Source: Candidatus Micrarchaeum sp. (lineage in GTDB: Archaea; SpSt-1190; DYHY01). From it: a stretch of 64,000 bases of DNA. The notes under the pieces were generated by a model. It had not been told where the DNA came from. It did not search any database and saw only the letters and a list, made by a program, of their open reading frames with translations. The stretch's first letter is position 1; every line of letters begins with the position of its first letter. Shown piece after piece: positions 6,154 through 28,922 of this stretch. The stretch lies in NCBI GenBank assembly GCA_020723935.1, contig DYHY01000004.1:7634-71633 (forward strand), written 5' to 3'. The translations under genes and the position numbers were made by a program.

Positions 6154-7332
6154 TTAAGCCTTCTTCAGCGCGGCCCTCAAATCTTCAAGCAGGTCTTCCT
6201 TCGTCTCGATCCCGACGGAGAGCCTGACGAGGCCCGGCTCGACTGCTATCTGCGAGCCCGCGGTCGACGCGTGCGTCATCGCGAGCGGCACCTCGATTAG
6301 GGACTCCACTCCCCCAAGGGACTCTGCGAGCGGGAAGAGCCGTGTGCCCTCCGCGAGCCTCCTGGCGGCCCGTGCCCCGCCCTTCATCACGACGGAGACC
6401 ATCCCGCCGCCGTTCCTCATCTGCCGCTCCGCGAGGGAGTGCTGCGGATGGGACGGGAGCCCGGGGTAGAGGACGCGGGAGACCTTTGGATGGCCTTCGA
6501 GGAGCTCGGCGATTGCGAGCGCGTTCTCGGCATGCCGCTCCATCCTGACCGCGAGCGTCTTCGTCCCGCGCAGGATGAGGAAGCAGTCCATCGGGCCCGG
6601 GACCGCGCCGATGGCGTTCTGCAGGAACTTCAGGCGGGAATACATCTTCTCGTCGTTTAGGAGGAGCGCGCCCCCAACGACGTCCGAGTGGCCACCCAGG
6701 TATTTCGTCGTCGAATGGACGACGATGTCCGCCCCCAAGGAAAGGGGCCGCTGCAGGTAGGGCGTCGCGAAGGTGCTGTCGACTGCGACCTGCGGCCTCG
6801 CCCGGGACTTGCGGGCCAGATCCGATATCTCGCGTACGTCGCAGAGCGCCATGCGGGGGTTGGTCGGCGTCTCGAGCCAGACTAACTTCGTGTTCGGCAG
6901 GATGGCTTGCGCGACCGCTCCGGAATCCGATCCGTCGACATATGTGAAAGAGAGCCCGTACTGGCGCAGGACGCGCTCGAAGAGCCGGTAGGTGCCGCCG
7001 TAGACGTCGTTGCACGCGACCACGTGGCCTTCGGGTCCTACCGTGCGGAGGACCGTGTCTATCGCCGCCATCCCGGAGGAGAACGCGAGGCTGTGGCGCG
7101 CGCCCTCGAGCGCCGCGAGGTTCTTCTGAAGAGCCGTCCGCGTCGGGTTGTCCGTGCGCGAATAGTCGTATCCCTTGTGCTTCCCTATTCTTTCTTGGGC
7201 GTAGGTGGAAGTCAGGTAGACCGGCGTCATCACGGCGCCTGTCGACGGGTCGGGCGGCTGGCCCGCCCTGACTGCGAGAGTCTCGAATCCCTGTTCCTTC
7301 CCTTTCAGAATGCCCTTGTTCACGTAGGTCAT
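6154..7332 (-). CDS. cystathionine gamma-synthase/gamma-lyase family PLP-dependent enzyme
   Basis: 392 aa with the Cys/Met-metabolism PLP fold. PLP-lysine motif VHSTTKYLGGHSDVVGG. Confidence 0.85.
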   Translation of the reverse strand: MTYVNKGILKGKEQGFETLAVRAGQPPDPSTGAVMTPVYLTSTYAQERIGKHKGYDYSRTDNPTRTALQKNLAALEGARHSLAFSSGMAAIDTVLRTVGPEGHVVACNDVYGGTYRLFERVLRQYGLSFTYVDGSDSGAVAQAILPNTKLVWLETPTNPRMALCDVREISDLARKSRARPQVAVDSTFATPYLQRPLSLGADIVVHSTTKYLGGHSDVVGGALLLNDEKMYSRLKFLQNAIGAVPGPMDCFLILRGTKTLAVRMERHAENALAIAELLEGHPKVSRVLYPGLPSHPQHSLAERQMRNGGGMVSVVMKGGARAARRLAEGTRLFPLAESLGGVESLIEVPLAMTHASTAGSQIAVEPGLVRLSVGIETKEDLLEDLRAALKKA

Positions 7333-8402
7333 GTCGTTCCCCTTCCAAGCGTCTTGCTCTTTTTCTTCTTTTTCTTCTTCTTCTTCTTCTTCTCCCGCTC
7401 TTGCTCCGCGCCCCTGTTGCCGCGGAAACGCAGGACATGGGCCGCCAAAACTATCACGAGCAGGAGGAGGGCGCCCCCTAGCACCTTAGGATAGGGCCCG
7501 GAGGAAGAGGAGAGCGCCCTGCCCTGCACCGAATAGAAGTACTGCTTGAGGTGGAGGAAATCCCAGGTGTTGACGACGGAAGTCCCCCTGAATACGACAA
7601 ACGACAGGCCGATGAGCGCGAGGAACGCGCCCGACACCAGGTTCGTCGTGTGCAGCAGCAGGTCCTTCCCGAACAGGCGGACGCGCACCTCTTTTCCCCT
7701 GATAAGCGGGCTCTTCGCGAGGCCTGTGGAATCGTAGAAGACAGACAGGATGAAGAGCGGGGCGAAGATGCCCAGGGAATACGCGCCCATAAGGAGGCTA
7801 GCGTAGAGGACGTTCCCGAGGAGCGCCGCGACGGAGAGAATCCCGCTCAGTATCGGCCCGACGCAGGCGGTCCAGCCCAGGGCGAAAAGGGTGCCGGAGA
7901 CGAAGACCCCCGCGACGCCGTCGCCGCCGGGAGCCGGGGCGGTTCTCGGCCGGATGAAGGAGGAGAATCCCTTGCCGAGGGCGGTCATGATTCCCATCGC
8001 CATCAGGACGAGCCCCGCCACGAGGACGAGCTCCGGCCTCTGGAGCTTCAGGAGCGATTGCTCGCCGACGAATCCGGCGACCGCGCCGAACGCCATGAAA
8101 ACCACCGCGACCCCTAGCGAGAACGCGAGGGTCATCTTCGTCACTTCCGTTTTGCCTCCCGGCCGGAAGGTGTAAGAGAAGTACGCGGGAAGGAGCGGGA
8201 GGACGCAGGGAGAGAGGAGTGTGAGGGCGCCGGCAAAGAACGCGATGAGGAAGGAGATCTTCGCCTGGAAGTCCCTGGCATAGCCCTGGTTATAGTCCTT
8301 TATCTTCTGGAGGGCCGGCGGGAGAGCCGATGCGTCCGCCGCGAGGGCGGGCGCCAGGAGGACGAGCGCCAGCAGCGCCCGGCCCAGATCCATCCTATCC
8401 AT
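7329..8402 (-). CDS. ccdA: cytochrome c-type biogenesis protein CcdA (DsbD-family) with 100-aa C-terminal extension ending in poly-Lys
   Basis: LSPCVLPLLPAYF and a second conserved Cys in the TM core. Extra TM helices. EKKKKKKKKKKK tail encoded by a (TTC)n run. Confidence 0.75.
   Translation of the reverse strand: MDRMDLGRALLALVLLAPALAADASALPPALQKIKDYNQGYARDFQAKISFLIAFFAGALTLLSPCVLPLLPAYFSYTFRPGGKTEVTKMTLAFSLGVAVVFMAFGAVAGFVGEQSLLKLQRPELVLVAGLVLMAMGIMTALGKGFSSFIRPRTAPAPGGDGVAGVFVSGTLFALGWTACVGPILSGILSVAALLGNVLYASLLMGAYSLGIFAPLFILSVFYDSTGLAKSPLIRGKEVRVRLFGKDLLLHTTNLVSGAFLALIGLSFVVFRGTSVVNTWDFLHLKQYFYSVQGRALSSSSGPYPKVLGGALLLLVIVLAAHVLRFRGNRGAEQEREKKKKKKKKKKKSKTLGRGTT
7358..7393. repeat. (TTC)n microsatellite encoding the poly-Lys tail of CcdA
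   Basis: ctttttcttctttttcttcttcttcttcttcttc on the plus strand. Confidence 0.8.
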
Positions 8403-8406
8403 CCTA

Positions 8407-8991
8407 TCAGTTCACCGCCAAGGTTCCCCTCATCAAGCTGTGCCCGGAGCCGCAGGGGCGGTTGCAGAAGAATGCGAAACGCCCCTGCCTGTCCGCGGTG
8501 AACTCGACGACGACCGGCGCGTCCCCGGGGGAGAAGGACTGCGTCGCAACCCCATAGTCGGGAAGGGTGGGGCCGTGCGTCCCCGACGTGCTTGTTAGAA
8601 CGAGCCTAACGCGGTCTCCCTGGCTCACGGTTGTGGTCGACGAGTTCCAGCCGAAGGAGTATGCCTCGACCTTTATCTCCTTCATGGGCGCCTGGCCCGC
8701 CGTCGAGGAGGTGGGCGAGCTGGAGGATGAAGAGGAGGGGGATGAAGAGGAGAGGGATGAAGAGGAAGGGGATGAAGAGGAGGGGGATGAAGAGCCCTGC
8801 GAGCTTGATGTCGAACTGGATGGACTTCCTGAGCCAGCCGAAGGCATCCCCGCGTCCTGCGCTGGCCCCGTCACGCATCCCGCGACCAGGACCGCCGCCG
8901 CCAGCAGAACGGCCGCCACAACCGCAAAGGAGGCGGCCGTCTCGGGCATAGCCTTCCCGATGTTTCCCCTGAATCCCGATGCGTATCCCAT
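8407..8991 (-). CDS. cupredoxin-like (CuA-type Cys/His/Met motif) lipoprotein with Ser-rich linker
   Basis: Lipobox LVAGC after a hydrophobic signal. About 45 aa of SSSP-type linker. C-terminal FFCNRPCGSGHSLMRG resembles the CuA CxxxCGxxHxxM motif. Confidence 0.6.
   Translation of the reverse strand: MGYASGFRGNIGKAMPETAASFAVVAAVLLAAAVLVAGCVTGPAQDAGMPSAGSGSPSSSTSSSQGSSSPSSSSPSSSSLSSSSPSSSSSSSPTSSTAGQAPMKEIKVEAYSFGWNSSTTTVSQGDRVRLVLTSTSGTHGPTLPDYGVATQSFSPGDAPVVVEFTADRQGRFAFFCNRPCGSGHSLMRGTLAVN
8690..8810. repeat. 12-nt tandem coding repeats (ggatgaagagga-like) encoding the Ser-rich linker
   Basis: Five near-identical units. Antisense reading gives the EDEEEGDEEE artefact ORF 8567..9220. Confidence 0.7.
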
Positions 8992-9014: not shown

Positions 9015-10000
9015 CTTATCTCTTTCCCGCCGTCCCGTTCGGAACCACGACCGAGCCGTCGGACAGGTTCCTATACGGCAGGCTGAATATCTCGACCGTC
9101 TGGAAGACGTACGTCCCGTCCCGCTCGACCGTCCCAACGTACTTCCAAGAGCCGTTCAGCGCCGGATACGCATCCACGTCGCCGTTCAGGATCGCCGTAG
9201 GGACGAGGAGTATCCCGTAGCGCGAGAGAAGCTCCTTCCCCCTCAGCCGAGAATATGTCGACGGATTTCTCGGCTTGCACGGCCGCCCCGACCTTGGCCA
9301 AGACCTTCTTGTGTATGGGCCCGGGATCGTAGCAGGACGCGCACGAGGCGTCGCGGACTATCGTGAGGTTGACGTACCCGACGGCCCGCCCGAGGGAAGC
9401 GTCGTAGTAAGGCGGAAGGGGTTTCTCGGCCACGTAGGCGGAACCGTCGGCTGAGAGGGGGGCCGTGCTGAAGATTCCGGGAAGGATGCCCTCGTACGCC
9501 GAAAGCTCCCCTGAGAGGACGACAGCGGGGAATTTCGAGAGGGAATACTCGAGCGCGAGCGAGCGTCCTTTGGGGGAAGACAGGTTCACCTGGCTGATGC
9601 TTCCCAAGCCCACCCCAGCTAGGCGCAGCTGGCTTAGGAACGGAAGGGAGCCCGCGCAGGACAGGGCATAGATTACGGAAACGTTCACTATTCCTGCGAC
9701 CGACCCGCTAGAGACGTCGAAGTAGAAGGGGTCTGGAGAGGAAAACACGATTGCGTCGCCAGAAAGCCTTCCGCCGGGAACCGCTTGCAGGGATTTCGCC
9801 TTCCCTATCTCGCCCGTCACGATCACCGCCGGAAGACGCGTTATCCCGTACCTGGAGATTAGGGGAGCAACCAGGGAGGAGCCGAAATCCAGGTCGTCTT
9901 GCGATGCCACCCGCACTCCGGCGGACTTGCGTATGGAATCTGCCAGGGCCGCGGGCGATGAGCACCTGCCGCAGTCGGCCTTGACTACTATGGTAGTCAT
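9015..10000 (-). CDS. protein with three tandem thioredoxin/glutaredoxin-like repeats (CGRC, degenerate SCAGS, CASC); C-terminal repeat in shifted frame
   Basis: MTTIVVKADCGRC...RYGITRLPAVIVTGE; YSLSKFPAVVLSGE; then SRYGILLVPTAILNGD only after a shift at a GGGGG run near 9240. Track ORF 9071..10000 ends in Arg-rich junk. Confidence 0.5.
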
Positions 10001-10269
10001 GGAGACGTCCGCCGGGAGGGGCGCTCCTGCTCGGTTCGGACGGCCGAGCCCAGGATTCTGGAGAGCGAGGAGGACGAGAGGAGGTCAACGGACGCGAACA
10101 TGACGAGGGCCGCCGCGAGGGCGAGTACGAGGCCTTCCCTCCTAAAAACCCCGGGAGGCTCCGGCCCGCGCGATTCCGCTGCCTGCCTACTGCTCCGCCT
10201 CGTCTCCATCGCCATCTCGCAAGTATTGTGCCCCGGGGGGCGCGCTCTCTTGATTCCTGAATAGAACAA
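9997..10269 (-). CDS. small single-TM protein, translationally coupled to the thioredoxin-fold gene
   Basis: Its stop overlaps the downstream ATG (ATGA). One hydrophobic helix LVLALAAALVMFASV. Confidence 0.3.
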   Translation of the reverse strand: MFYSGIKRARPPGHNTCEMAMETRRSSRQAAESRGPEPPGVFRREGLVLALAAALVMFASVDLLSSSSLSRILGSAVRTEQERPSRRTSP

Positions 10270-10319: not shown

Positions 10320-10556
10320 CTAACAGCCACCCACCTGCTGGGGAAGACTCGCAAGGCTCTTGGGAACCGAGCCTCCCGACGCCGCGGCGATGCCTCCGCT
10401 GTTGCTGCCTGCGGCCTCGGACGCTGCGAAGAGCTCCCCGAGGGAAACCTTCCCGTCCGAGACCTTCGTCCTAAGCTCGTTCAGCTGGAACGTCTGCGCC
10501 GCGGAGACTACCACGAACACCGCGAGAATCGCCGCGAGTATCTTCGTCTGGTCCAT
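10320..10556 (-). CDS. small membrane-anchored protein ending in the SLPQQVGGC motif
   Basis: N-terminal TM ILAAILAVFVVVSAAQTF. C-terminus ...SLASLPQQVGGC followed by a stop. Confidence 0.45.
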   Translation of the reverse strand: MDQTKILAAILAVFVVVSAAQTFQLNELRTKVSDGKVSLGELFAASEAAGSNSGGIAAASGGSVPKSLASLPQQVGGC

Positions 10557-10603
10557 CTTTTTTCGACACCTCCTTGTCTTTCTTCTTTCCTGATCTGATT
10601 AGC

Positions 10604-11416
10604 TTAACACCCGCCGACCTGGCTCGGGAGGCTCGCGGCGCCCGGCCCCGCGTCCCCGCCCGCCACATTGAGACCCAAGGTAACCATGTCCTTGGGGAAG
10701 AACAGGGTCTTCCACTTCATCGCCTCGTAGAGTATCTGCCCGTCGGAGTAGTTCGGCCTGTTCGCCGAGAGCCAGAGGGCCACGGAGAGCATCGCCGGGT
10801 TGTGCTGGCAGCCGCAGAGCGAGTTGCCGTTGGAGTCAGCTCCGGTCGGCCCTATCCCGCAACAGTACTCGCAGGAAATGCCGACCGGCTTGGTAGCGAA
10901 GCCTATGAACCTCTGGAACGCCTCAGGGTTGTTCTTCTTTACGTCGTCCTTGAGGCTCGGATAGGATTTCGCGAGGAGGTCGAGCGACTTTATCGGGTCG
11001 TCGAAGCTCACTCCCATCTCGGTGCCGTACTCGGGGGTGCCCGTCGGGAACATCGCCGCCATCGCCCCATCGGCCGTCTTCATCTTGTCGAGGGGGAAGA
11101 CCGCGGCGATCGTGTCGGCCGTGGATTTTATCTTCGAGACGTCAACCTTGGAGAGGTCAGCTCCGTCGGAGCTCCCGGCCTGGAGGACGCTCGAGAGAAA
11201 CCCTATCGAGGGCCCTTTGGCCCCGCCGCTGCCGTAGAGGGCGCCGGATATCGCGAATATCTGGGCCTGGTTGACTGCGAGGAGTATCGCCGCTATGACA
11301 ATGAGCGCTATCACCGGGGCGCCCAGCCTCATCGCGCCGGATTCCCTCTCTGCCGCCCCCTTCTCGGGAGCTGCCTTGGCCGCAGTAGCTTGCGTAGCAT
11401 GATGCCTTTCCGCCAT
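10604..11416 (-). CDS. membrane-anchored Cys-rich protein ending in SLPSQVGGC (paralog of 10320..10556)
   Basis: TM VIALIVIAAILLAVNQAQIF. Middle domain with CEYCCGIGPTG...CGCQHNP. C-terminus AASLPSQVGGC. Start possibly the internal Met at 11332. Confidence 0.5.
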   Translation of the reverse strand: MAERHHATQATAAKAAPEKGAAERESGAMRLGAPVIALIVIAAILLAVNQAQIFAISGALYGSGGAKGPSIGFLSSVLQAGSSDGADLSKVDVSKIKSTADTIAAVFPLDKMKTADGAMAAMFPTGTPEYGTEMGVSFDDPIKSLDLLAKSYPSLKDDVKKNNPEAFQRFIGFATKPVGISCEYCCGIGPTGADSNGNSLCGCQHNPAMLSVALWLSANRPNYSDGQILYEAMKWKTLFFPKDMVTLGLNVAGGDAGPGAASLPSQVGGC

Positions 11417-11466
11417 TTTCGGTCCGGTCGAGAACGCTGCCCCTATATTTAAAAGGGGGGAAATAA

Positions 11467-11486
11467 CCGTGAAAAAACAGTGAAAG
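11467..11486 (+). promoter_or_regulatory. 20-bp motif CCGTGAAAAAACAGTGAAAG (direct GTGAAA half-sites) overlapping the regulator start codon; TATATTTAAAA box upstream
   Basis: Reverse-complement copy at 13252..13272. AT-rich box at about 11441-11452 in a divergent intergenic region. Confidence 0.45.
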
Positions 11487-13228
11487 AAGGGGAAAACCAG
11501 CCTGCCGCGCAGCAGCGGGGCGTTTTCGCGAGCCAGAGGTCGGTCCTGGCGCTCTCCTTGGCGCTCCTCCTGATGGGCGCGGTGGTCCTGGTGAACTTCC
11601 TGTCCTTCTCCAAGGTCGGGGGGGTTATGGAAAGCCAGCTCCTGGACCGCCAGCAGATAGCGGCCGACTACGCGGCGTCAAGGATCGAGGAGCACATCCA
11701 TCAGGTCAGTATGGAGGTGACGACGCTTTCCAGCTTCCCCGCGCTGAAGAACCTCGACCTGAGCCAGTGCAGCGGGGACGTGAAAATAATACACCCCAGC
11801 CTCGAGGGCAAGACGAAGGTACTCCTGCGGGTTGACGCTCTCGGGAACATCGTGGAATGCTCGTCCCCGAATTACAAGGGATACGTTGGCTTGAACGTCA
11901 GGAACAAGGACTATTTCAAAGTCCCGGCCGAGACGGGGGCTTCCTATGTCTCGGGCCTCGCGAGGGACGGGAGCGACTACAATGTCTTCGTCTCCGCCCC
12001 CATCTTCGAGGGGGGGTCTGGAGGAACATACCCCAATAACGGCGAGTTCGGGGGAATACTCCTAAGCATCGTGGGCCTCCAGGACCTCTACGACCTCTAC
12101 ATACACCCAATAGGGCCGATGGGCAGGGACCTCTTCGTCCTCGCGAGCGTGGATGCGGGCGACACCGTGATGAAAAGCCAGGGCGCCCCTGACCTGGGCG
12201 GCCTCGGCAAGGTGCACGAGATAAGGGATTATGCCGGGACGGGCAGGACCATAGCCGTCTCCTCCGACCTCTCCCTCGGGAGCGAGAAGTTTCGCCTCTT
12301 CATCCTCACACCCCTCGCCAACGCAGACAAGGAGATACGGGACGTCAGAGCGGGCTACCTGTTCTCCCTGTTCTTGGCCGTTTCGGCCATCCTGGGCGCC
12401 CTCCTTCTCGCGGCTTCGGCGTACCTGTCGCGCGAGAGGATAAGGACGCAGCTCGCGCGGACCACAGAGACGCTCGAGAGCCTCGGGATCACGGTCGAGA
12501 CGGAACGGAGCGGATATTCTCCTACCGACATCGTCCTCGAGCCCCACAAGGTCTACCTCCTTAAGGAGGACGGGGAGACGAGCCCCCACGACCTCTTCAT
12601 TGGGATGCTCTCACATGGCTTCGCGGGCCTCGGCATAGTGAGGGACGACCCCAGGGAGCTGCGGAAGAAGTACAGCCTCAAGAAGACTTCGTTCATATGG
12701 CTCTCGGAGGCGGGCGGGGGCCGGGGCGTCCCGGCCGAGACCAAGATCGAGACGCTCCTCGGCCTCGCCAGGGAGTTTGTGGAGAGGAGCGAGAAGAGCG
12801 TCATATTGATAGACCGGCTCGACTACCTGATATTCGAGAACGGCTTCGAGCGGGTCCTCAAGGCGGTGTACGCCCTCCGCGACCTCGTCGCGAGGAGGAA
12901 GTGCGTCGTGATAATCTCGGCCAACCCCGCGGTCATACCCAAGGAGCAGATGGAGGCGTTCAGCGCGGAGACGATCGACCTCTTCGGCGGCAGGGCCGGG
13001 GCCGGCCTCTCCAAGGACGAGGCCGAGCTGCTCTCGTTCGTGAACGAGGGGAACGTCGCGAGCAGGCTCGTCTCCTACACGGACGTGACGGAGCAGCTTG
13101 GGATAACGAAGCCCACCGCCCGAGCCAAGATCCGGCGCCTGCAGGACGCGGGCTTCCTCTCCGTCGAGAAGGTCGGGCGGGTGAAGGCCGTGCGGATAAC
13201 GTCCCTGGGCAGGAAAATCATTTCCTGA
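11480..13228 (+). CDS. membrane-bound one-component regulator: N-terminal TM, extracytoplasmic sensor domain, second TM, DUF835-like (P-loop-less RecA/KaiC-like) domain, C-terminal winged HTH
   Basis: TM helices at about 22-42 and 295-318. Cytoplasmic part has IWLSE...VILIDRLDYLIFENGFE...CVVIISANPAVI. C-terminus ...QLGITKPTARAKIRRLQDAGFLSVEKVGR. GTG start. Confidence 0.65.
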   Translation: MKEGENQPAAQQRGVFASQRSVLALSLALLLMGAVVLVNFLSFSKVGGVMESQLLDRQQIAADYAASRIEEHIHQVSMEVTTLSSFPALKNLDLSQCSGDVKIIHPSLEGKTKVLLRVDALGNIVECSSPNYKGYVGLNVRNKDYFKVPAETGASYVSGLARDGSDYNVFVSAPIFEGGSGGTYPNNGEFGGILLSIVGLQDLYDLYIHPIGPMGRDLFVLASVDAGDTVMKSQGAPDLGGLGKVHEIRDYAGTGRTIAVSSDLSLGSEKFRLFILTPLANADKEIRDVRAGYLFSLFLAVSAILGALLLAASAYLSRERIRTQLARTTETLESLGITVETERSGYSPTDIVLEPHKVYLLKEDGETSPHDLFIGMLSHGFAGLGIVRDDPRELRKKYSLKKTSFIWLSEAGGGRGVPAETKIETLLGLAREFVERSEKSVILIDRLDYLIFENGFERVLKAVYALRDLVARRKCVVIISANPAVIPKEQMEAFSAETIDLFGGRAGAGLSKDEAELLSFVNEGNVASRLVSYTDVTEQLGITKPTARAKIRRLQDAGFLSVEKVGRVKAVRITSLGRKIIS

Positions 13229-13315: not shown

Positions 13316-13915
13316 ATGGAAAACGAAAGCAAGGCCGCAATCCCGGTGCTCGCCGTTGCCGCGCTCGCGGTATTATTGGCGCTCTTCGCGCTCCCCCTCG
13401 CGGGGGCGTATGCGTACGAGGGGAACTTCACCAAGGAGGCTCTCGCGATAATAGCGGCGAATGTGTCGTGCGGCTCGATAACCGAAGCACAGCTCGAGAC
13501 CCTGGGCGAATACTACAAGGAGCTCATGCATCCGGGCGCGGCCCACGAGGCTATGGACCAGATGATGGGTGGCGAGGGGTCTGAGTCCCTGCGGCAGGCG
13601 CACGTCGGAATGGGCCGGGCGTTCCACTGCGGCGCTTCGGGAAGCTTCAGGGGGATGATGGGCCTCGGCTACAGGATGGGCATGATGGGCGGTCCTTATT
13701 ACGGGGGATACACCGGCTACGGCGGGGGGATGATGGGCGCGTCCTATGCTACTCCTTGGTATCTGGTGCTCGTCAACGTCCTCTACTTGCTCCTCCTCCT
13801 GGGTGCGGTGATTTTGGTCTTCATCTGGGTCGTGCGGTCCTGGAGGGCGCTCAACAGCGGCGCCCGGCAGGAAGCCGGGAGCGGCCCGGTAAGGAAGCCT
13901 GCGAGGCGGAAATAA
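13316..13915 (+). CDS. secreted, C-terminally anchored Met/Gly-rich protein (Met-motif Cu-binding type)
   Basis: Signal peptide. MMGGEG, GMMGLGYRMGMMGGPYYGGYTGYGGGMMG. C-terminal TM helix. Confidence 0.5.
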   Translation: MENESKAAIPVLAVAALAVLLALFALPLAGAYAYEGNFTKEALAIIAANVSCGSITEAQLETLGEYYKELMHPGAAHEAMDQMMGGEGSESLRQAHVGMGRAFHCGASGSFRGMMGLGYRMGMMGGPYYGGYTGYGGGMMGASYATPWYLVLVNVLYLLLLLGAVILVFIWVVRSWRALNSGARQEAGSGPVRKPARRK

Positions 13916-13916
13916 G

Positions 13917-14582
13917 TTGGGCGGAACGGACGGAAAGGCGGCGGACGCCGTCTTCTACGCAATACTCATCGTTGCGGCTGCCGGGGCGACGGGAATAGCC
14001 ATCCTGTCGGCATTACAGCCTCCCTCCCCGGCAGCCCCAACTTCATTCGGCCCGCGCGCAACGAAGCTCACCTCATTCGACATATCGCTCGCGCAGGGGA
14101 TGATGGACAGAAACGGCGACGGGAAATGCGATTCCATGGGATCGTCGGTCGAGGGCGAGATCCTCGCGAACAGGCTCCAGTGCATGGGCGACCCCAACGC
14201 GACGATAGGGCAGCTCGGCTCCTCGCACCACCACGCGGACTTCAAGGTCTACGTAAACGGGCTGCCGACGGATTTCAACGACCCGAAATACTTCGTCAGG
14301 AGCTCGTTCGCCCATGTGGAGCCCGACGAGGTTTTGGGGGCGACCGGGACCGTCTTGCACCTCCACGCGACGGGAGTCCCGTTATGGGTCTTCTTTAAGA
14401 GTGTGGGGATGGACCTGGACGGGGCGAAGATCCTCGTGAACGGCGCGGAGAGTGGTCTGCTAGGGGACTATGCGCCGTCAAACGGCGACAGGATACTGGT
14501 GTCTTACGGAAACGCTACGCAAGGGGAACTGAAGAGAGAAATGGACAGCGTCACTGACTACGCGGCGATGGGGAGGGTCTGA
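13917..14582 (+). CDS. secreted protein with His motifs (SSHHHADFKVYVNG, HLHATG)
   Basis: N-terminal TM/signal. No recognisable family. Lies inside the copper gene set. Confidence 0.45.
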   Translation: MGGTDGKAADAVFYAILIVAAAGATGIAILSALQPPSPAAPTSFGPRATKLTSFDISLAQGMMDRNGDGKCDSMGSSVEGEILANRLQCMGDPNATIGQLGSSHHHADFKVYVNGLPTDFNDPKYFVRSSFAHVEPDEVLGATGTVLHLHATGVPLWVFFKSVGMDLDGAKILVNGAESGLLGDYAPSNGDRILVSYGNATQGELKREMDSVTDYAAMGRV

Positions 14583-14584
14583 AA

Positions 14585-15526
14585 ATGACTTCCACTGGCG
14601 CCTACATTTTCTCGTACCTGCTCTATATGGCGGTGCTCTCGGGCGCCGCCCTCTACGTCTGGAAGTACAGGAAGGGCCTCGACGAGATGTACGGCATGAT
14701 GATGGGAATGACGTTTGGCACGGTCGCAGGTCTTGCGACCGGCCTCTTCTACGCCCTCCCGAGCGGCGACTTTGTCGGCGGGGCGATTGTCGGGACCGTG
14801 GCCGGGCTCCTCTTCGGGATACTGCTAGGGGTGATCGGCGGGCCCCTCGGGATAATGGAGGGCGTTATGGGCGCCTTCATGGGGGGCTTCATGGGCTCGA
14901 TGACGGGGCAGATGGCGCGCCCGTTCCCGCTGGGCGCGTTCTCTCCGGTCTTCGCGGCGATATTCCTCGCGATGATGGCGGGGATCACCTATGCCGCGGA
15001 AACGGGCAAGACCTGCTGCGCTCCCGCGGGGGGTAAGCCGGAGGCGCCCGAGAGGCCGAAGCTGGTGAACCCGTCGGGCAAGTTCGTCGCCACGTGGACA
15101 GTCGTCGCCGCAATCCTCCTCTTCGCGAGCTTCGCGATAGACCTCTCGCCGTACTCCGCACAGGGCGCCCAGTCGACTGGCACGCAGAGCACGGCTCTTC
15201 CGGCGTCGCTTCGGGCGCTCACGGAGGAGCAGCAGACCCAGGCAGTCCAAAAGGACGGCTACCAGGAAGCGTCATTTAGGGTGACCGCGGGGAGGTACAC
15301 GCCTAACGTCATAGTCGTCAAGGCTGGGACGCCGCTTAGGCTGAACATCGCAGCAGACAGGAACGCCGGATGCGGGACTGACATCGTCTTCCCGGATCTC
15401 AGGGTGCGCTCGCTCATCCCCCCGGGGACGTCCAAGACGGTCGAGGTGGGGACCCCGTCCGCGGGGAACCATTCGTTCTCCTGCTCCATGGGCATGTTCC
15501 GCGGAAAAATCGTCGCGGTCGGTTAG
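14585..15526 (+). CDS. Met-rich polytopic membrane protein with C-terminal cupredoxin-like domain
   Basis: MMMGMTFG...GVMGAFMGGFMGSMTGQM TM region. C-terminal VKAGTPLRLNI...CGTDIVFPDL...HSFSCSMGMFRGKIVAV. Confidence 0.55.
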   Translation: MTSTGAYIFSYLLYMAVLSGAALYVWKYRKGLDEMYGMMMGMTFGTVAGLATGLFYALPSGDFVGGAIVGTVAGLLFGILLGVIGGPLGIMEGVMGAFMGGFMGSMTGQMARPFPLGAFSPVFAAIFLAMMAGITYAAETGKTCCAPAGGKPEAPERPKLVNPSGKFVATWTVVAAILLFASFAIDLSPYSAQGAQSTGTQSTALPASLRALTEEQQTQAVQKDGYQEASFRVTAGRYTPNVIVVKAGTPLRLNIAADRNAGCGTDIVFPDLRVRSLIPPGTSKTVEVGTPSAGNHSFSCSMGMFRGKIVAVG

Positions 15527-15556
15527 TCAGTTAAAAAGAGGTAAAGGGGGAGAAGA

Positions 15557-18196
15557 GTGAAAATGGCGATGGAAAAGGATCCTATATGCGGCATGAATGT
15601 CGACCCGCGGACCGCGAGGTTCAAGGGCGAGAAGAGTGGGAGGACATACTACTTCTGCAGCAAGTCCTGCATGGACGCTTTCCTGGGGGGCGGCGAGGAG
15701 GGCGTGGGGGAAGAGGGGCGCCATCGCGGCGACGGGGAACCGGAATCCGGGAAGGAAGAAGGACTCCCGCAAAAAGGCCCGCCGAAGAGGATGTTCAGGA
15801 TAAAGGGCATGCACTGCGCTAGCTGCGCGATAACGATAGAGAACAACCTCAAGAAGCTCCCAGACACCAGGGCGAGCGTCAACTACGCCTCCGAGAAGGC
15901 CTATGTCGAGGGGCCCGCGACCGACGCGCGGGTCATGGCGCGCGTGAAGGAGGCTGGCTACGAGGCGATCCCGGCTTCCGACAGGCCGGGGGAGATGGTC
16001 CTTGAGATATCCGGGATGGATTCCATGCACTGCGTCGGGATCGTCGAGAGCTCGCTCAAGCGCGTGCACGGGGTCTCCGAAGTCAAGGTCAACCTCGCCA
16101 CGGGCAAGGCGAGGGTCGCGTTCGACCCGGCAAGGGCCCATGCAAGCGACCTCGTCAAGGCTGTGAAAGCCGTCGGCTACGGCGCGATGGCGTCTAGCGA
16201 GAAGCGCGACGAGCACGCCGAGGAGCAGCGGGCGGAGATACGCTCCTACCTCTCCCGGATAGCGGTATCTTTCTTCTTCGCAATCCCTCTCCTCTACCTC
16301 TCGATGGGGATGCTCGTGGGCCTCCCGGTGCCGGAGTTCAAACCGTTCGAGCTGGGGCTCCTGGAGCTGGCGCTCGCTACGCCTGTGATAGTCGCGGGCC
16401 GGGGCTTCTACACGCGCGGCTTCAAGTCGCTCGCGAACCTCACGCCCAACATGGATTCTCTCGTCGCCATAGGGACGGGGGCTGCATACGTCTACAGCGT
16501 CTACGGCGTCGTCTCAGCGTACTACGGCGCGTCGCCGGAATACTATTTCGAGGTATCCGCGCTCCTGATAGCTTTCATACTCCTCGGGAAATACCTGGAA
16601 TCGGCCGCAAAGGGCAGGACGTCGGAAGCGATAAAGAAGCTAATCGGCCGGCAGGCCAAGACGGCGACCGTCGTCCATCACGGAGTCGAGACCGAGATCC
16701 CAATAGAGGAAGTGGCGATCGGCGACATCGTCATCGTCAAGCCCGGCCAGAAGATACCTGTGGACGGGACCGTCACCGAAGGGAGGTCCACCGTCGACGA
16801 GAGCATGATAACGGGCGAGAGCGTCCCCGTCGGGAAGGGCCCGGGGGACGCCGTGATAGGTGCGACGATGAATAAGACCGGCGCCTTCAGGTTCAAGGCA
16901 GAGAAGATAGGCGCCGACACGATGCTCGCGCAGATAGTGCGGATGGTTGAGGAGGCTCAGGGATCCAAGGCGCCGATACAGGCGCTCGCCGACAGGGTCT
17001 CGGCCTATTTCGTCCCGGCGGTCGTCGGAATCGCCCTCGTATCTTTCCTCGCGTGGCTCTTCCTCGCGGGCAAGCCGTTCCCGTTCGCCCTCACGATATT
17101 CATATCCGTCCTGATAATCGCCTGTCCCTGCGCCCTGGGCCTCGCGACGCCCACGGCCGTGATGATGGGGACGGAGAAGGGGGCCGAGAACGGGATACTC
17201 ATCAAGACGGCCGAGGCCCTGCAGATGGCCGGGAGCGTCGGAACGGTCGTCTTCGACAAGACCGGGACTCTCACAAAGGGCGAGCCTTCCGTGCCGGACG
17301 TCGCAACGGTCGCAGGCGGCGAGGAGAACGACGCCCTCGACTACGCGGCGGCCATAGAGAAGAACTCCGAGCATCCCCTGGGCGAAGCGATAGTGAGGTT
17401 CGCCGCCGAGAAGGGCATAAGGCCGGAGGCCGTGAACGAGTTCAGCTCGATCACGGGGAAGGGCATCAAGGCGTTCTACAGGAACAAGCTAGTGCACCTG
17501 GGCAACAGGGCGCTCATGGATTCGGAGGGGATCCCCTACCGCGCGTACGAGGACAAGACGTCCGGGCTCGAGGGCGAGGGGAAGACAGTCATGTTCCTCG
17601 CGGTCGACAGGAAGGTGATCTCGCTCATCGCGGTCGCGGACACCCTCAAGGAGCATTCGAAGGAGGCCGTCGCCGAGCTCGGGAGGCTCGGGATAGAGAC
17701 GGCCATGATAACGGGCGACAACGAGCGGACGGCCAAGGCGATAGCCTCGCAGGTCGGGATAAAGACCGTCCTCGCGCAGGTCCTTCCCGGCGAGAAGGCC
17801 GAGAAGGTGAAGAGCCTCCAGGAGGGGGGGAAGCGCAAGGTCGCGATGGTCGGGGACGGGATAAACGACGCGCCCGCGCTCACCCAGGCAGACGTGGGGA
17901 TAGCGATAGGCTCAGGGACCGACGTCGCGATCGAGTCAGGGGGGATAGTCCTCGTCAAGGACGACCTGCGCGACGTCGTGAAGGCGATACGCCTGAGCAA
18001 GTACACGATGGGGAAGATCAGGCAGAACCTCTTCTGGGCGTTCTTCTACAACCTGATCGGGATTCCGGTGGCCGCGGGCGCGCTCTTCCCGTTCACGGGC
18101 GGGCTGCTCAACCCCGTGGTAGCCGGCGCCGCCATGGCTTTCAGCAGCGTGAGCGTTGTCACGAACACGCTGACTATGAAGGGGTTCAAGTTGTAG
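15557..18196 (+). CDS. copA: copper-translocating P1B-type ATPase with N-terminal TRASH/YHS domain and two HMA domains
   Basis: DPICGMNV...[12 protein letters not shown]; two GMxCxxC HMA motifs; [10 protein letters not shown]; DKTGTLT; [10 protein letters not shown]. Confidence 0.9.
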
Positions 18197-20215: not shown

Positions 20216-20323
20216 GGCCGGGCCGCGGCGGGGTCTGGAGGGCGCCGAACGAAGAGAGGGGCCCGGAACGGCCGGGCCGCGGCGGGGTCTGGAGGGCGCC
20301 GAACGAAGAGAGGGGCCCGGAAC
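20216..20323. repeat. perfect tandem duplication (2 x 54 bp) that includes the 3' terminal 10 nt of tRNA-His
   Basis: ggccgggccgcggcggggtctggagggcgccgaacgaagagaggggcccggaac at 20216-20269 and again at 20270-20323. Confidence 0.9.
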
Positions 20324-20385
20324 GGGAATCGAACCCGTGTTTGGGGATCCACAGTCCCCCAGTCTGCCACTAACTTATCCAGGCC
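20314..20385 (-). tRNA. tRNA-His (anticodon GUG) with extra 5' G-1
   Basis: Hand-folded cloverleaf. Acceptor GCCUGGA/UCCGGGC with one G-U. Anticodon stem GGGGA/UCCCC, loop CUGUGGA. T-arm ACGGG-UUCGAUU-CCCGU. Discriminator C73 pairs with G-1. TTTATAAAAG box about 30 nt upstream. No encoded CCA. Confidence 0.85.
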
Positions 20386-20873
20386 ACGATCGACTGCGAA
20401 GACTCCTGGAAGGCGCTTTATAAAAGTTAGATGCCCCGCGCTTCCTGCCGCGGCGCGCCATTTCGCCGGGCTTGGCTAGCTCCACTGCGCACAGCATCCA
20501 GAAGGCCGCCGCGCAGATGAGGAGGGCCTCCGCGAGCAGTATCAGCCAGTCGGACCCGATCCCGCGCGCGAAGGCGCGCGTCGCGGCCGCCGTCCATAGG
20601 AGGATGACGAAGAAGACGACGCCGGAATAGCCCGGCCGAAGATCCCCCCGCTGCCCCTGAGCGCCCGGACGCCCGCGACGATGGAATATGCCATGAGGCC
20701 GCCGCCGCGAGCCCGAGGAAAAGTATCGAAACAGTCAGGATGCCGCCCGTCCCCCTGCAAGCCGGCAGCGCTCAGTTTAAGGGTTCTGCCGGAAGACCCG
20801 GAACGTTATAAATGCCGGGCGGGGCCCCGCCCCCGTGCTAGGGACCAATATCGCCCTCGCGGCCGAAGCGGTG

Positions 20874-21881
20874 ATGTCCAACTTCAGGAGGCCCGCCTTT
20901 CCATACAAGCTCACATTCGCCGTCACCTACAACTGCAACTCGCGCTGCAAGACGTGCAACATCTGGCAGAACAGGAGCACGGGCGAGCTGACGCTCGGGG
21001 AGATAGACTCGTTCCTCAGGAAGAACGGTGGCTTCCGCTGGGTCGCCATAACGGGCGGGGAGCCGTTCCTGCGCCGCGACCTCCCCGAGATCTGTGAATC
21101 GTTCGCGAAGAACTGCCCGCTCCAGATACTCACAATAACGACCAATTCCCTCCTCCCGACGCTCCAGATAGAGGGGATAAGGAAGATAGCGAAGCTCAAA
21201 ATCCCCAGGCTCATCGTCACGCTGAGCTGCGACGGGGCGGGCAAGCTGCACGACGAGATACGCGGCGTGCCTGGGAACTTCGAGAAGCTCTGCCGGATAT
21301 ACTCGGAGCTGCGCGGCCTGCAGGACAGCCACTTCCGGATTTTCTTCGGGATGACGCTCTCGTCCTTCAACGTCGGGAAATTCGATGAGCTCTACAGGGA
21401 GCTGCATTCGCGCTTCCCGGAGATCGGGTACGACAGGATCCACGTGAACGTCTTCCACACCTCGAGCCACTTCTACAGTAACGCTGAGGGCGGCGCCGAG
21501 GAGAAGAGGGAGAAATGGAAGAGGGCGGCGATAGCGGAGATGAGGAACGTCCTCTTGAAGAGGAGGTTCTCCCCCTTCGATTCCCTCGGGTTCCTCGAGC
21601 GTAGGTACATCAAGGGCTCGATAAGATATATGAAGACGGGCAGGTCGCCGATGTCCTGCCTCTCGCTCTCGAGCTCGATGTTCCTCGACCCGCACGGGAA
21701 CCTCTATCCCTGCACAATATGGAACAGGAAGATGGCGAGCATCCGCGAGAACAAGGATTTGAGGAAGCTGTGGAACTCGCGCGAGTTTCGGGAGACCGCG
21801 CGCCTCGCCCGCGAGCTCAAATGCCCCAACTGCTGGACCCCTTGCGAGGCGTATCAGACGATACTCGGGAATCTTCTCTAA
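20874..21881 (+). CDS. radical SAM enzyme with C-terminal SPASM/Twitch-like Cys cluster
   Basis: CNSRCKTC (CxxxCxxC) near the N-terminus. C-terminal C-x17-C ... CPNCWTPC. Start taken at MSNFRR within track ORF 20835..21881. Confidence 0.8.
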   Translation: MSNFRRPAFPYKLTFAVTYNCNSRCKTCNIWQNRSTGELTLGEIDSFLRKNGGFRWVAITGGEPFLRRDLPEICESFAKNCPLQILTITTNSLLPTLQIEGIRKIAKLKIPRLIVTLSCDGAGKLHDEIRGVPGNFEKLCRIYSELRGLQDSHFRIFFGMTLSSFNVGKFDELYRELHSRFPEIGYDRIHVNVFHTSSHFYSNAEGGAEEKREKWKRAAIAEMRNVLLKRRFSPFDSLGFLERRYIKGSIRYMKTGRSPMSCLSLSSSMFLDPHGNLYPCTIWNRKMASIRENKDLRKLWNSREFRETARLARELKCPNCWTPCEAYQTILGNLL

Positions 21882-24460: not shown

Positions 24461-24547
24461 TGGTGCAGGAGGCCGGATTCGAACCGACGAACCCTCTAGG
24501 GGAGCAGATCTTGAGTCTGCCGCGTTTGACCGCTCCGCCACTCCTGC
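24461..24547 (-). tRNA. tRNA-Leu (anticodon CAA), long variable arm, CCA encoded
   Basis: Acceptor GCAGGAG/CUCCUGC. Anticodon stem GCAGA/UCUGC, loop CUCAAGA. Variable arm about 17 nt. T-arm CGGUUCGAAUCCG. Ends ACCA. TTTAAAA box about 25 nt upstream. Confidence 0.85.
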
Positions 24548-26294: not shown

Positions 26295-28922
26295 CTAGAC
26301 AAGGAAGCTCACGTATCCCTTGCGCCCGGCCCATTTCAGGGCTTCGTAGGCGACGAGCACGCTCGAAGCAGTCAGGAACGCGAAGACCCAGTCGAGGGGG
26401 CCAAGGGCGACCGTCCGGAAGATCCTCTGCAGGAACGGGACGTACACTATCAGGACGTGCGCCGACATCAGGACGGCGATGGATGTCACGCCGACCCTGT
26501 TCGTGAGGATCCCTATCTTGAAGGCGGACTCGTCGAAGGAGCGGCAGTTAAGGACGTTGAAGACCTGGAAGATGGCGAACGTCGTGAAGGCCACGGTGGT
26601 CGCGCGCGTCTGGTCGCCCGCGAGGAAGTAGGCCCAGAATATGGAGAGGGTCCCTAGCGCCATTATCAAGCCCGTTATCGCCATGTTGATCAGCATGTTC
26701 CTGGATATCAGCGGCTCGCGCATCCCCCTGGGCTTCCTGGACATCAGGTTCCGCGCGCGCGTGGGCTCCAGGCCCAAGGAGAGGGCAGGGGGCCCGTCGA
26801 TCGAGAGGTTTATCCACAGGAGCTGGACGGGGAGTATCGGGAGTGGGAGGGAGATGGCGATGCTCAGAAGTATCAGGAGGATCGCGCCGATGTTGGTCGA
26901 GAGCTGGTAGCGGATGAACTTCCTGATGTTCTCGTATATCGCCCGCCCCTCCTCGACGGCCCCCACGATGCTCGCGAAATTGTCCTCTGTGAGGACCATC
27001 GCAGAGGCCTCCTTCGCCACGTCCGTCCCCGTGAGGCCCATGGAGATCCCGATGTCTGCCTTCCTGAGGGCGGGCGCGTCGTTCACGCCGTCCCCCGTCA
27101 TCGCGACGACGTAGTCCTTCTGCTGCAGGGCCTTCACGATCTTGAGCTTGTGCTCGGGCGAGACGCGGGCGTAGATGACCATCTCCTCGACGATGTCCTC
27201 CAGGGACGTGACCTCGTCTATCTCGCGGCCAGTGAGGACCTTGGGCTCCAGGCCCAGGGACTTGGCTATGGCGATCGCCGTGCCGGCGTGGTCGCCCGTT
27301 ATCATGACGACCTTTATCCCCGCGCGCATGCACCTCTCTATCGCGCCCTTCACCTCCTCGCGCAGGGGGTCCATCATCGCCTGCAGGCCCACGAACACGA
27401 GGTTTTCCTCGTGCAGGTGCTCGCCGGGGAAGAGGGGCTTGTATGCGAAACCGAGGATCCTGAGGCCCTCGGAGGAGAAGACGTCGTTCGCCTCCAGGGC
27501 CTCCTTCCTGTGGCGCTCAGTCATCTGGAACTCGCGGCCGCCGTAGAGTATCTTTGTGCACTTGGCTATCACATCGTCGGGCGCGCCCTTGACTAGGAGC
27601 ATGGGGTTTGCCCCGAGGAGGTTCACCGTGCTCATGAGCTTCCTCTCGCTCGTGAACTCGAACTCATCTATCCTCTTGAAGACGCGCTCCAGCTCCTCCT
27701 TGTGTATCTCGCCCTTGGCGGCGCTCACGATGAGCGCAATCTCCGTCGGGTCCCCCGAGACCTTGTCGTGGAAGAAGGAGGCGTTGTTGCAGAGGGCTCC
27801 TATCTGGAGGAGCATCTCGAGGGCGGGCGTGCGGTCGCCAAGGATCTTGCCGTGGACGTTGTAGCCCTGGCCTGATACCTCACACGTGCGCCCGTCGTAG
27901 AAGACCTTGGTCACGGTCATCTGGTTCTTCGTGAGGGTCCCCGTCTTGTCCGTGCAGATGACGTTCACGCACCCGAGGGTCTCAATGGACGCGAGCCTGC
28001 GCACGAGGACGTGGCGGTGGACCATCCTCCTTATCCCGACGGCGAAGGTTATCGTCATCACGATGGGCAGGCCCTCGGGGAGCGCGGCGACTATCATCGC
28101 GACGGATGTGAGGAGGACGTCCAGGAACGGCCACTTCTTGACGAACAGGAGGAAGCCGAAGACGAGGACGGAGAGCGCGAGGATCCCGTAGGAGAGCTGC
28201 TTGCTCATCCTGTCTATGCTCTTCTGGAGGGGCGTGCTCTCGAACTCTATCCCCTCTATGAGCTTGGCGATCTTGCCTATCTCCGTGCGGGGGCCCGTCT
28301 CGACGACGACCGCCGCGGCCCGCCCGGTCGCGACGACCGTGCCCGAATAGGCCATGTTCTTCCTCTCCGCAAGGGGCGTGTCCTTGTGCAGCGTCTCGGC
28401 GTGCTTCCGGGACGGCGACGATTCGCCCGTGAGCGCGGCCTCTAGGACGGAGAAGGAATGATGCTCGGTGATCCTCGCGTCCGCCGGGACGCGGTCGCCC
28501 GTCTCCAGGAATATGATGTCGCCGCGCACGAGCTGGGGTGCCTCTGCTAGCTGCTTGAGGCCGTCGCGCAGGACCTTCACCTTGAGCGCGGACATCCTCT
28601 TGAGGGCCGCTATCGCGTTCTCGGCGTTCCTCTCCTGCGCGAAGCCTATCACGGCGTTTATGAGGAGAATCAGGGCGATCGCGAGGGACTCGGCCCGGTC
28701 GCCGAGGATGAACGAGAGGACGGATGCGGCGAGGAGCAGGAGGACGGGGAGGCTCTTGAACTGCTCGAGGAAGAGCACTGCGTCGTGGCGGCGCTTGGCC
28801 TCCGCGAGGAGGTTCCTCCCCTCCGCGGAAAGGCGCCTGGAAGCCTCGGCCGACGAGAGCCCCTCCTTCCCGGTCCCAAGCTCCGCAAGGAGGACGTCGA
28901 TGTCCTTCGCATGATGCGACAT
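26295..28922 (-). CDS. P2-type cation-transporting ATPase (Ca2+/SERCA-PMCA-like)
   Basis: 875 aa. ICTDKTGTLT, MITGDHAGTAIAIA, MTGDGVNDAPALRKADIGISMG, 10 TM. Confidence 0.9.
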   Translation of the reverse strand: MSHHAKDIDVLLAELGTGKEGLSSAEASRRLSAEGRNLLAEAKRRHDAVLFLEQFKSLPVLLLLAASVLSFILGDRAESLAIALILLINAVIGFAQERNAENAIAALKRMSALKVKVLRDGLKQLAEAPQLVRGDIIFLETGDRVPADARITEHHSFSVLEAALTGESSPSRKHAETLHKDTPLAERKNMAYSGTVVATGRAAAVVVETGPRTEIGKIAKLIEGIEFESTPLQKSIDRMSKQLSYGILALSVLVFGFLLFVKKWPFLDVLLTSVAMIVAALPEGLPIVMTITFAVGIRRMVHRHVLVRRLASIETLGCVNVICTDKTGTLTKNQMTVTKVFYDGRTCEVSGQGYNVHGKILGDRTPALEMLLQIGALCNNASFFHDKVSGDPTEIALIVSAAKGEIHKEELERVFKRIDEFEFTSERKLMSTVNLLGANPMLLVKGAPDDVIAKCTKILYGGREFQMTERHRKEALEANDVFSSEGLRILGFAYKPLFPGEHLHEENLVFVGLQAMMDPLREEVKGAIERCMRAGIKVVMITGDHAGTAIAIAKSLGLEPKVLTGREIDEVTSLEDIVEEMVIYARVSPEHKLKIVKALQQKDYVVAMTGDGVNDAPALRKADIGISMGLTGTDVAKEASAMVLTEDNFASIVGAVEEGRAIYENIRKFIRYQLSTNIGAILLILLSIAISLPLPILPVQLLWINLSIDGPPALSLGLEPTRARNLMSRKPRGMREPLISRNMLINMAITGLIMALGTLSIFWAYFLAGDQTRATTVAFTTFAIFQVFNVLNCRSFDESAFKIGILTNRVGVTSIAVLMSAHVLIVYVPFLQRIFRTVALGPLDWVFAFLTASSVLVAYEALKWAGRKGYVSFLV

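Follow-up and report, generated by a model that had tools for sequence, protein, structure and literature searches.

A stretch of 64,000 nucleotides from Candidatus Micrarchaeum sp. (assembly GCA_020723935.1, contig DYHY01000004.1; hereafter the window, whose positions are used throughout) encodes on its minus strand two neighboring proteins of 270 and 78 residues, referred to here as the large and the small protein, which share an N-terminal transmembrane (TM) anchor and a C-terminal tail that ends with a cysteine. The large protein belongs to a family that, like its C-terminal motif, has not been described so far, and whose members were seen only in DPANN archaea. The genes for the large protein, the small protein, a triple-thioredoxin protein and a CcdA-type protein form a four-gene core that is kept across at least seven named DPANN lineages. 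The reading that we favor, though still tentatively, is that the large and small proteins would be the core pair of an outside-facing thiol/copper module, in which thiolates kept reduced by a relay would handle Cu(I) directly. Its best-supported form is a reductive relay that would run from CcdA through the triple-thioredoxin protein to a CcmH-like Cys5-His domain, would serve the membrane-tethered arms with their C-terminal cysteine or be served by them, and would be deployed mainly with copper-homeostasis genes.

Two Proteins with a Common Tail

A preliminary description of this DNA had singled out two open reading frames of 270 and 78 codons ending in ASLP(S/Q)QVGGC and a stop codon, and both are indeed present, at 10604..11416 (-) with the C-terminus GAASLPSQVGGC for the large protein, and at 10320..10556 (-) with the C-terminus SLASLPQQVGGC for the small one. 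From its N-terminus, the large protein is made up of a short, His-containing and presumably cytoplasmic tail, a single TM helix at approximately residues 33-55 (11252..11320 (-); helix 33-61 in the structural model) with a conserved NQxQI sequence at its outer end, a low-complexity linker, a helical domain predicted to face the outside, and an LPSQVGGC tail. The helical domain harbors a Cys5-His knuckle (S181-C-E-Y-C-C-G...C201-G-C-Q-H-N-P207; 10796..10876 (-)), which contains the Cys-rich segment CEYCCGIGPTG...CGCQHNP pointed out earlier (residues 182-207). The tail corresponds to residues 259-270, or 10604..10642 (-) with the stop codon. The small protein comprises a TM helix (..SAAQTFQL..), a Ser/Gly/Ala linker and the tail (residues 67-78; 10320..10358 (-) with the stop codon), and its only cysteine is the terminal one. 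At position -5, with the terminal cysteine counted as -1, it has a Gln, as does the large protein.

The two proteins share nine of their last 10 residues, and in a single BLASTP comparison their last 19 residues align with 11 identities (E 2e-4). The two proteins are the only products of at least 30 residues in the window that end in GGC. As had been noted, the terminal VGGC is written differently in the two genes, gtc ggc ggg tgt for the large and gtg ggt ggc tgt for the small protein, and only three of the nine identical residues within the last 12 share a codon. The view that the peptide rather than the DNA is conserved is borne out. The proposed similarity of the N-terminal anchors is found at the profile level, where residues 32-87 of the large protein match residues 4-60 of the small one (hhalign probability 94.8%, E 5e-8), a score that the hydrophobic helices may inflate.

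An Undescribed Family of DPANN Archaea

A word-indexed search with the large protein returned at least 659 homologs, and each of those with a named source is a "hypothetical protein" of Woesearchaeota, Nanoarchaeota or other DPANN archaea. The closest align across 69-100% of the protein with 54-64% identity, and the named ones among them come from Woesearchaeota-type metagenome-assembled genomes. When 1.84 billion representatives, clustered at 50% identity, were searched exhaustively with a profile, this retrieved 282 clusters at E<=1e-3 and 230 at E<=1e-10. A scan of one genome per species yielded relatives in 178 genomes, and 80 of the loci were kept; together with locus L001 they form a fetched set of 81, of which 35, all of subfamily 1, are full loci in which the gene for the large protein is flanked by 5 kb or more in either direction. 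Names across the 80 loci include Woese-, Nano-, Pace-, Micr-, Aenigmat-, Iain- and Altiarchaeota, while some third-party assemblies are labeled "Methanosarcinales" and locus L063 is labeled merely "bacterium." A more distant subfamily 2 (CEYCCGA...ACGCAHSxAMRGLA), again with DPANN names, adds at least 1357 proteins. The profiles of subfamilies 1 and 2 match with an hhalign E-value of 2.4e-51, and the tail and the knuckle are kept in both. No bacterial member turned up, although MVGGC-like tails may exist in Firmicutes, and a scan of viral contigs revealed no relatives.

The family has escaped annotation. Neither the large nor the small protein has a Pfam or NCBIfam match, Pfam and NCBIfam scans of 93 family members gave nothing relevant, and searches of PDB sequences with the protein and with the profile returned only noise. 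A literature search on MVGGC, QVGGC, their variants and PCYCGC brought up nothing relevant and no paper naming the motif.

Conservation is concentrated in the knuckle and in the tail. Among 48 aligned large proteins, S181, C182, E183, C185, C186, G187, C201, G202, C203, H205, N206 and P207 are invariant, as are P264, V267, G268, G269 and C270 of the tail, and N49 of the NQxQI sequence is nearly so. All 187 subfamily-1 proteins have C[EQD][YFW]CCG, the spacing from CC to CGC is 14 in 185 of them, and 172 contain exactly six cysteines (CxxCC-x14-CxCxH plus the terminal Cys). Position -5 is Met in 185 of the 187 subfamily-1 tails, the Gln of the window being one of two exceptions, and a QVGGC tail is found in 37 of 202 subfamily-2 proteins. 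Thus, the tail is widespread in archaea and by no means peculiar to the pair first described: approximately 330 of 368 family proteins have kept it, with the cysteine last before the stop codon.

Over 176 homologs of the large protein, the mean net charge of the 15 residues flanking the TM helix is +1.3 before it and 0.0 after it. These values fit a topology in which the N-terminus would be inside and the C-terminus outside, placing the Cys-rich domain on the outer face of the membrane. The N-terminal tail that precedes the helix has at least three His in 94 of these 176 proteins, and at least eight in 36.

The Small Companion and the Covariation of the Tails

The 78-residue protein retrieved only itself in a word-indexed homolog search, and its family was recovered through genomic context. 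A small-type open reading frame of 63-99 residues lies downstream of the gene for the large protein, on the same strand and usually adjacent to it, in 74 of the 80 loci. Of the six remaining loci, four are cut off by the edge of a contig, whereas the gene is truly missing from L026 and L042. Chance can be excluded as the origin of the shared tail, because the tail is kept in so many family proteins and the pair in so many loci. In the consensus of the small proteins, a Ser/Gly-rich linker connects a TM helix (..VQAFQL..LK..) to ...(S/N)(I/L)xNLPxMVGGC, in which V, G, G and C are invariant. The match between the profiles of the large and small proteins pairs FNQxQI with VQAxQL and aligns both tails, and the small protein looks like the large one minus its globular domain. 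One family member, the 335-residue P0055, is an in-frame read-through fusion of a large and a small protein (...LPGIVGGC-EGGKK-MKQATL...LPQMVGGC), and it was left out of the profile comparison. The subfamily-2 loci examined contain one to three copies of the small gene.

Within a genome, the tails vary together. Over 82 pairs of large and small proteins, 75 of them plus those of seven subfamily-2 loci, position -5 is Met in both partners of 79 pairs and Gln in both partners of three (the window, L082 and L085), with no discordant pair. By our own calculation, which ignores phylogeny, the odds of the three Gln cases coinciding are approximately 1 in 88,000. Pro at -7 is absent in two genomes, each time from both partners (R/D in L077, N/Q in L078), LPN is found in all three tails of L086, and no tail of L083, L084, L085 or L088 has Leu-Pro, the small protein of L083 retaining only the Pro at -7. 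Gene conversion is not the general cause of the match, because identical tail residues have the same codon in only 305 of 599 cases (51%); the tails of L071, with nine of nine codons identical, may represent a recent instance of it. The simplest reading of the covariation is that the large and small tails would have a binding partner in common or would be matched to one another.

In one clade, the large protein has five cysteines and no tail (it ends in ...NKYRGIEKA), and three tail-only proteins follow it (L087, L089, L090). Evidently, a separate protein can provide the tail in trans, as this clade of tail-less proteins is accompanied by tail-only ones. The same three loci also carry a triple-thioredoxin protein, a thioredoxin-membrane fusion and a lipobox-anchored paralog of the large protein ending in LPNQMG(S/K)C. 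A third kind of membrane-tethered peptide was observed in 15 loci (L005, L007, L008, L012, L016, L018, L019, L021-L023, L028, L029, L047, L048, L084), usually directly after the gene for the large protein. It is a lipobox peptide (e.g., LVGC-S) of 34-69 residues that ends in ...PSGP(I/V)GGGC(G), and none was found in the window.

The preliminary description had likened the terminal GGC to a lipidation or processing signal, and this idea found no support. In its general form, the proposal would be that (M/Q)VGGC marks the proteins to be cleaved, lipidated or covalently linked to the envelope, as might be expected of an invariant, strictly C-terminal motif that follows small residues and has upstream a Leu-Pro loosely reminiscent of sorting signals. 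However, no peptidase or transferase is conserved nearby in the loci examined, where the consistent partners are instead thioredoxin-fold and CcdA/DsbD_TM proteins, and no TM segment follows the motif, unlike in the sortase, archaeosortase and rhombosortase signals (LPXTG, PGF-CTERM, GlyGly-CTERM). A single Cys at -1 after GG also differs from CaaX boxes, where the Cys is at -4, and from Rab-type CC or CXC ends, and the predicted location of the tail is extracytoplasmic, not cytoplasmic. Since, in addition, the proteins already have an N-terminal anchor and the tail is confidently modeled in both subfamilies, we regard such a signal as most improbable. Ribosomally synthesized and post-translationally modified peptide precursors, or ubiquitin-like processing at GG, were set aside as well, as the proteins are membrane-anchored and predicted to face the outside, with no conserved maturation enzymes nearby. 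A radical SAM/SPASM protein is encoded in the window 10 kb away (20835..21881 (+)) and does not recur with the module.

Thioredoxin and CcdA Partners

The most constant partners of the pair are two thiol-redox proteins. The first is a membrane-anchored protein of approximately 380 residues with three thioredoxin-fold repeats, each with a CxxC motif and a cis-Pro loop. Homologs of the window protein (9016..10269 (-); weak Thioredoxin_3 match) were detected by phmmer in 57 of the 81 fetched loci and in 32 of the 35 full loci, and the homolog in L001 matches Thioredoxin_3 at 1.2e-10. The second is a CcdA/DsbD_TM-type protein, a transmembrane conduit for thiol-disulfide electrons, which in the window occupies 7329..8402 (-), matches PF02683 (8.2e-18) and PF13386 and has both Cys motifs; a protein of this type is encoded in 33 of the 35 full loci. 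The module thus co-encodes the two elements of a CcdA-thioredoxin reductive relay, namely a two-Cys DsbD_TM/CcdA protein and a membrane-anchored CxxC protein of thioredoxin fold. At its end, the window ccdA gene has an (AAG)n tract for some 11 lysines (7329..7390 (-)), and its TGA overlaps the next ATG (ATGA), that of a cystathionine gamma-synthase-like open reading frame (6154..7332).

In the window, the thioredoxin gene is spread over three frames, with an N-terminal TM open reading frame at 9997..10269, a middle part at 9071..10000 and the C-terminus at 9016..9177. The two frame changes are located at approximately 10040 and at approximately 9238, where a C5/G5 run adjoins the break, and the second repeat lacks the second Cys of its CxxC motif (CAGS).

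Several fusions join these functions. Thioredoxin is fused to a cupredoxin in L006, and DsbD_TM to a cupredoxin in L085. In L073 (9269..10672) and L078 (9365..10759), the large protein is fused at its N-terminus to a multi-TM domain of approximately 230 residues that has GCPSCG (GCPxCG) inside a helix and gave no Pfam match. Stand-alone relatives of this domain with the in-membrane CxxC are encoded in L005 and L033, and the six representative clusters P0125, P0126, P0129, P0131, P0133 and P0140 probably share the fusion, judging only by their length and extra cysteines. No DsbD is found within 10 kb in L073, and the multi-TM domain of L073 and L078 may represent an alternative membrane redox conduit.

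The constancy of the relay genes bears on the most credible of the other explanations, which nevertheless appears rather unlikely to us. In a pure thiol-disulfide repair system of the Scs or DsbD-DsbC type, the module would reduce or isomerize wrongly oxidized cysteines at the cell surface and no protein would bind copper. The link to copper genes would stem solely from copper-catalyzed disulfide damage, and the tails would be redox shuttles or decoy substrates. CcdA and thioredoxin are indeed more constant than any copper gene, the fold and the position of the CxxC resemble those of CcmH, Gln can replace Met at -5, and the copper tolerance given by ScsB and ScsC does depend on a reductive relay (PMC3322552). 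On the other hand, the Met/His motifs in the linkers of some small proteins and the His-rich N-terminal tails suggest direct contact with metal, cupredoxin fusions to relay proteins exist, and six invariant Cys plus a His exceed the needs of a CxxC oxidoreductase.

The Copper Setting

The copper island in which the pair had been placed is a setting seen again in the loci of other genomes. Copper markers, counted as CopA, HMA, cupredoxin, DUF411/CopG and Met/Gly-rich protein genes, were scored across subfamily 1 in the 35 loci that span 15 kb or more; at least one marker is present in 19 of these loci and CopA in 8, where a single-copy gene of a 1-Mb genome would be expected in approximately 2% of 20-kb windows. 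Among the first seven subfamily-2 loci examined, six have genes for CopA, a CopZ-like HMA protein, cupredoxin, DUF411 or PCYCGC. L082 and 10 loci of subfamily 1 have DUF411 genes next to the family, small Met/His-rich proteins are encoded alongside it in L082 and L083, and several subfamily-2 small proteins have an (E)MxxRMH(P/G) motif in their linker.

In the window, the copper genes form an arm that follows a divergent regulator on the plus strand. This arm encodes a Met/Gly-rich protein (13316..13915 (+)), a 221-residue protein without assignment (within 13316..18196 (+)), a cupredoxin (14585..15526 (+)) and, with YHS and HMA domains, a P1B ATPase of the CopA type (15557..18196 (+)). Homologs of CopA and of the Met/Gly-rich protein recur near the gene for the large protein in other genomes. 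The Met/Gly-rich protein, which has no family match, starts with a signal or anchor, continues with a helical segment (..QLE.LGEYY.E.MHPG.AH..M..MMG) and a Met/Gly-rich stretch, and closes with a C-terminal TM helix; it probably binds copper, and it is found near the module in L084 (12967..13491) and in seven other loci. A CobW-type metallochaperone GTPase is encoded directly upstream of the gene for the large protein in L001 (6807..7793) and in L003, and approximately 4 kb upstream in L004, which hints at another link with metals. A second P-type ATPase of the window, type II and Ca/Mg-like (26295..28922 (-)), does not recur with the module, nor do the genes for tRNA-His and tRNA-Leu (20312..20384 (-) and 24461..24547 (-)).

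The regulator had been reported to be divergent from the pair, and its gene (11480..13228 (+)) does lie 63 bp away on the opposite strand. It encodes a membrane-bound protein with two TM helices around a Cache-like sensor, followed by DUF835 (PF05763, 1.1e-25), an inactivated KaiC-like domain described as iKaiC (PMC5847659), and a winged helix supported by helix-turn-helix matches. A homolog of this regulator is encoded within 6 kb of the large protein in 12 of the 35 full loci. Regulators neighboring the family are of the DUF835-winged helix, MarR/DUF7343 or PadR types, or repressors of the BlaI/CopY type; in some loci, the latter lie on the opposite strand and form a regulatory pair with M48/M56 sensor peptidases. 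In the middle of the 63-bp intergenic region of the window, approximately 30 nt from each start codon, the A/T-rich TATATTTAAAA (11444..11454) lies between runs of C4 and G6. The window sequence has approximately 63% GC. The A/T-rich element, a candidate archaeal TATA box, suggests a single shared region from which leaderless transcripts might start both ways. A Shine-Dalgarno-like GGAGGTG (10567..10573 (-)) can be read 10 nt upstream of the ATG of the small gene. A scan for sigma-70 promoters and terminators was uninformative here, the host being an archaeon.

On the other side of the pair, the window encodes a CuA-type cupredoxin (CxxxCxxxHxxM; 8407..8991 (-)) with an N-terminal anchor and a long Ser-rich linker, which matches COX2 and Cupredoxin_1 as well as the models of the NosZ C-terminal domain and of CoxB. 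Its position between the thioredoxin gene and ccdA, repeated in about a dozen other loci, raises the question of whether the whole module might be an assembly line for this cupredoxin, similar to TlpA-Sco-PCuAC, with thioredoxin reducing the CuA cysteines and the large and small proteins delivering copper. The fusions of thioredoxin and of DsbD_TM to cupredoxins would agree with such a role, as would the fact that CuA-only "nosZ-like" proteins, discussed as possible N2O reductases, are widespread in DPANN archaea (PMC10936187). We nonetheless consider it improbable: homologs of the window cupredoxin are present in 18 of the 80 loci, with about a quarter of the loci having it in the same gene cluster, and any cupredoxin at all in 11 of the 35 subfamily-1 loci that span 15 kb or more, as against the near-constant large, small, thioredoxin and CcdA proteins, and there is no resemblance to Sco or PCuAC. 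For the CuA-only cupredoxins themselves, the module offers an alternative context, and their placement in a thiol/copper operon suggests a role other than that of an N2O reductase.

Predicted Fold

AlphaFold models were obtained for the large protein of the window and for a 34%-identical member of subfamily 2, with predicted local distance difference test scores (pLDDT) of 84.5 and 84.1, respectively. Both models show a TM helix, a disordered linker and a helical domain with a small β-knuckle at the Cys cluster. The tail has a pLDDT of approximately 87 in the window model, a value that fits a docked rather than a free tail, and of 72-83 in the subfamily-2 model. A Foldseek search of the PDB gave no match.

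The helical domain resembles the three-helix bundle of CcmH, the thiol oxidoreductase of System I cytochrome c maturation, a fold likeness that is reproducible but weak and does not amount to established homology. Alignment by hhalign to two solved CcmH sequences places ISCEYC and its helix on LRCPKC and its helix (E 0.026, probability 1.9%, not significant), and another run places the YSDGEIL helix on KSKKEIV (probability 0.3%). PF03918 (CcmH/CycL/NrfF) matched neither the large protein nor 48 + 45 family members at E<=10, a PDB profile search with the family did not retrieve 2hl7 or 2kw0, and the genes called in the 10 tabulated loci include none for Ccm proteins or cytochrome c. The likeness deserves attention because the step just before CcmH consists of a DsbD/CcdA conduit and a thioredoxin-fold protein, the very partners that are conserved here.

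The models also contain zinc-ribbon-like β-bridges in the knuckle, and five family members weakly match a zinc-binding domain model. Together with the tail covariation, as it would be expected for partners, this might point to a purely structural role of the cysteines, in which CxxC...CxC would hold zinc and the terminal cysteine would tie the large protein to the small one or to the envelope by a disulfide, yielding a non-catalytic scaffold. A constant reductive relay would break such disulfides, however, and the copper neighborhood would go unexplained, making this scenario very unlikely in our view.

Proposed Mechanism and Significance

In the thiol/copper module that we favor, the genes for the large, small, triple-thioredoxin and CcdA proteins would be co-transcribed, and electrons would flow from the cytoplasm to CcdA, then to the thioredoxin protein and finally to the CcmH-like domain. 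The relay would thereby keep the cysteines of the knuckle and of the tails as free thiolates. The terminal cysteine would act as a reactive thiol on a swinging arm that docks on the knuckle, in cis for the large protein and in trans for the small one, and once docked it would bind or pass on Cu(I), or else exchange disulfides, within a copper-stress response. A more specific version, which we find doubtful, is that the (M/Q)VGGC tail would be an exchangeable sixth cysteine, with tail-only and lipobox-GGGC peptides plugging into the knuckle as membrane-tethered thiol arms, to give a split site that passes on Cu(I) or electrons over the surface of the cell. The proteins would then be a new type of extracytoplasmic carrier, so far confined to DPANN archaea, which might bear on how episymbionts deal with the surroundings of their hosts or take advantage of them.

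Several observations weigh against the favored model. Approximately half of the subfamily-1 loci have no copper gene within 10 kb, and the Met at -5 is not an obligatory copper ligand, because Gln occupies this position in approximately 11% of the tails. For the docking of the tail on the knuckle, pLDDT is the sole indicator, and CxxC...CxC, which comprises four of the six cysteines, could hold a structural zinc. As for the window, the twice-frameshifted thioredoxin gene may denote a pseudogene, the relay not working or being in decay in this organism, or it may reflect indels in the assembly.

The retention of the four-gene core in the tiny genomes of DPANN archaea suggests that it fulfills an important, undescribed envelope function, and the large-protein family offers a testable entry into the extracellular copper and thiol homeostasis of these organisms. 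Its unusual features are the companions that share with the large protein just the anchor and the Cys tail, and the covariation of the tails within a genome. If the module does work as a split or shuttling thiol site, it would constitute a new mechanism in envelope redox biology.

Comparison with Known Systems

The active site of CcmH (2hl7, 2kw0) is LRCxxC, whereas the large protein has (I/V)SCEYCCG followed by CGCxH, such that the CxxC is present without its LRC context. Unlike CcmH, the large protein also has an extra N-terminal subdomain and the C-terminal Cys tail. The bacterial ScsABCD and DsbD-DsbC/CueP systems likewise combine a membrane electron conduit with a thioredoxin-fold protein, are tied to copper tolerance and keep envelope cysteines reduced (PMC3322552, PMC4546943). 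These bacterial relays have no counterpart of the six-Cys domain protein or of the tail-only mini-proteins, and the conduit is CcdA-like here rather than ScsB.

A CxCC-type motif and a copper-resistance setting are features shared with CopG (DUF411). CopG has a thioredoxin-like fold and harbors a Cu4 cluster bridged by cysteines, while the domain of the large protein is, according to the models, all-helical with a knuckle, and it has no DUF411 match in Pfam. With regard to the tail, the CGC end of Erv2p, the CC end of MerA and the GCUG end of thioredoxin reductase are similar in concept only. In those proteins, a cysteine at the tip of a flexible arm carries electrons or metal to a site in the interior, but the arms belong to flavoenzymes of the cytoplasm or the endoplasmic reticulum, and we know of none that exists as a separate, tail-only membrane protein. 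In its system logic, the module nevertheless resembles the known redox and copper modules of the envelope, CcmG-CcmH, Scs and TlpA-Sco.

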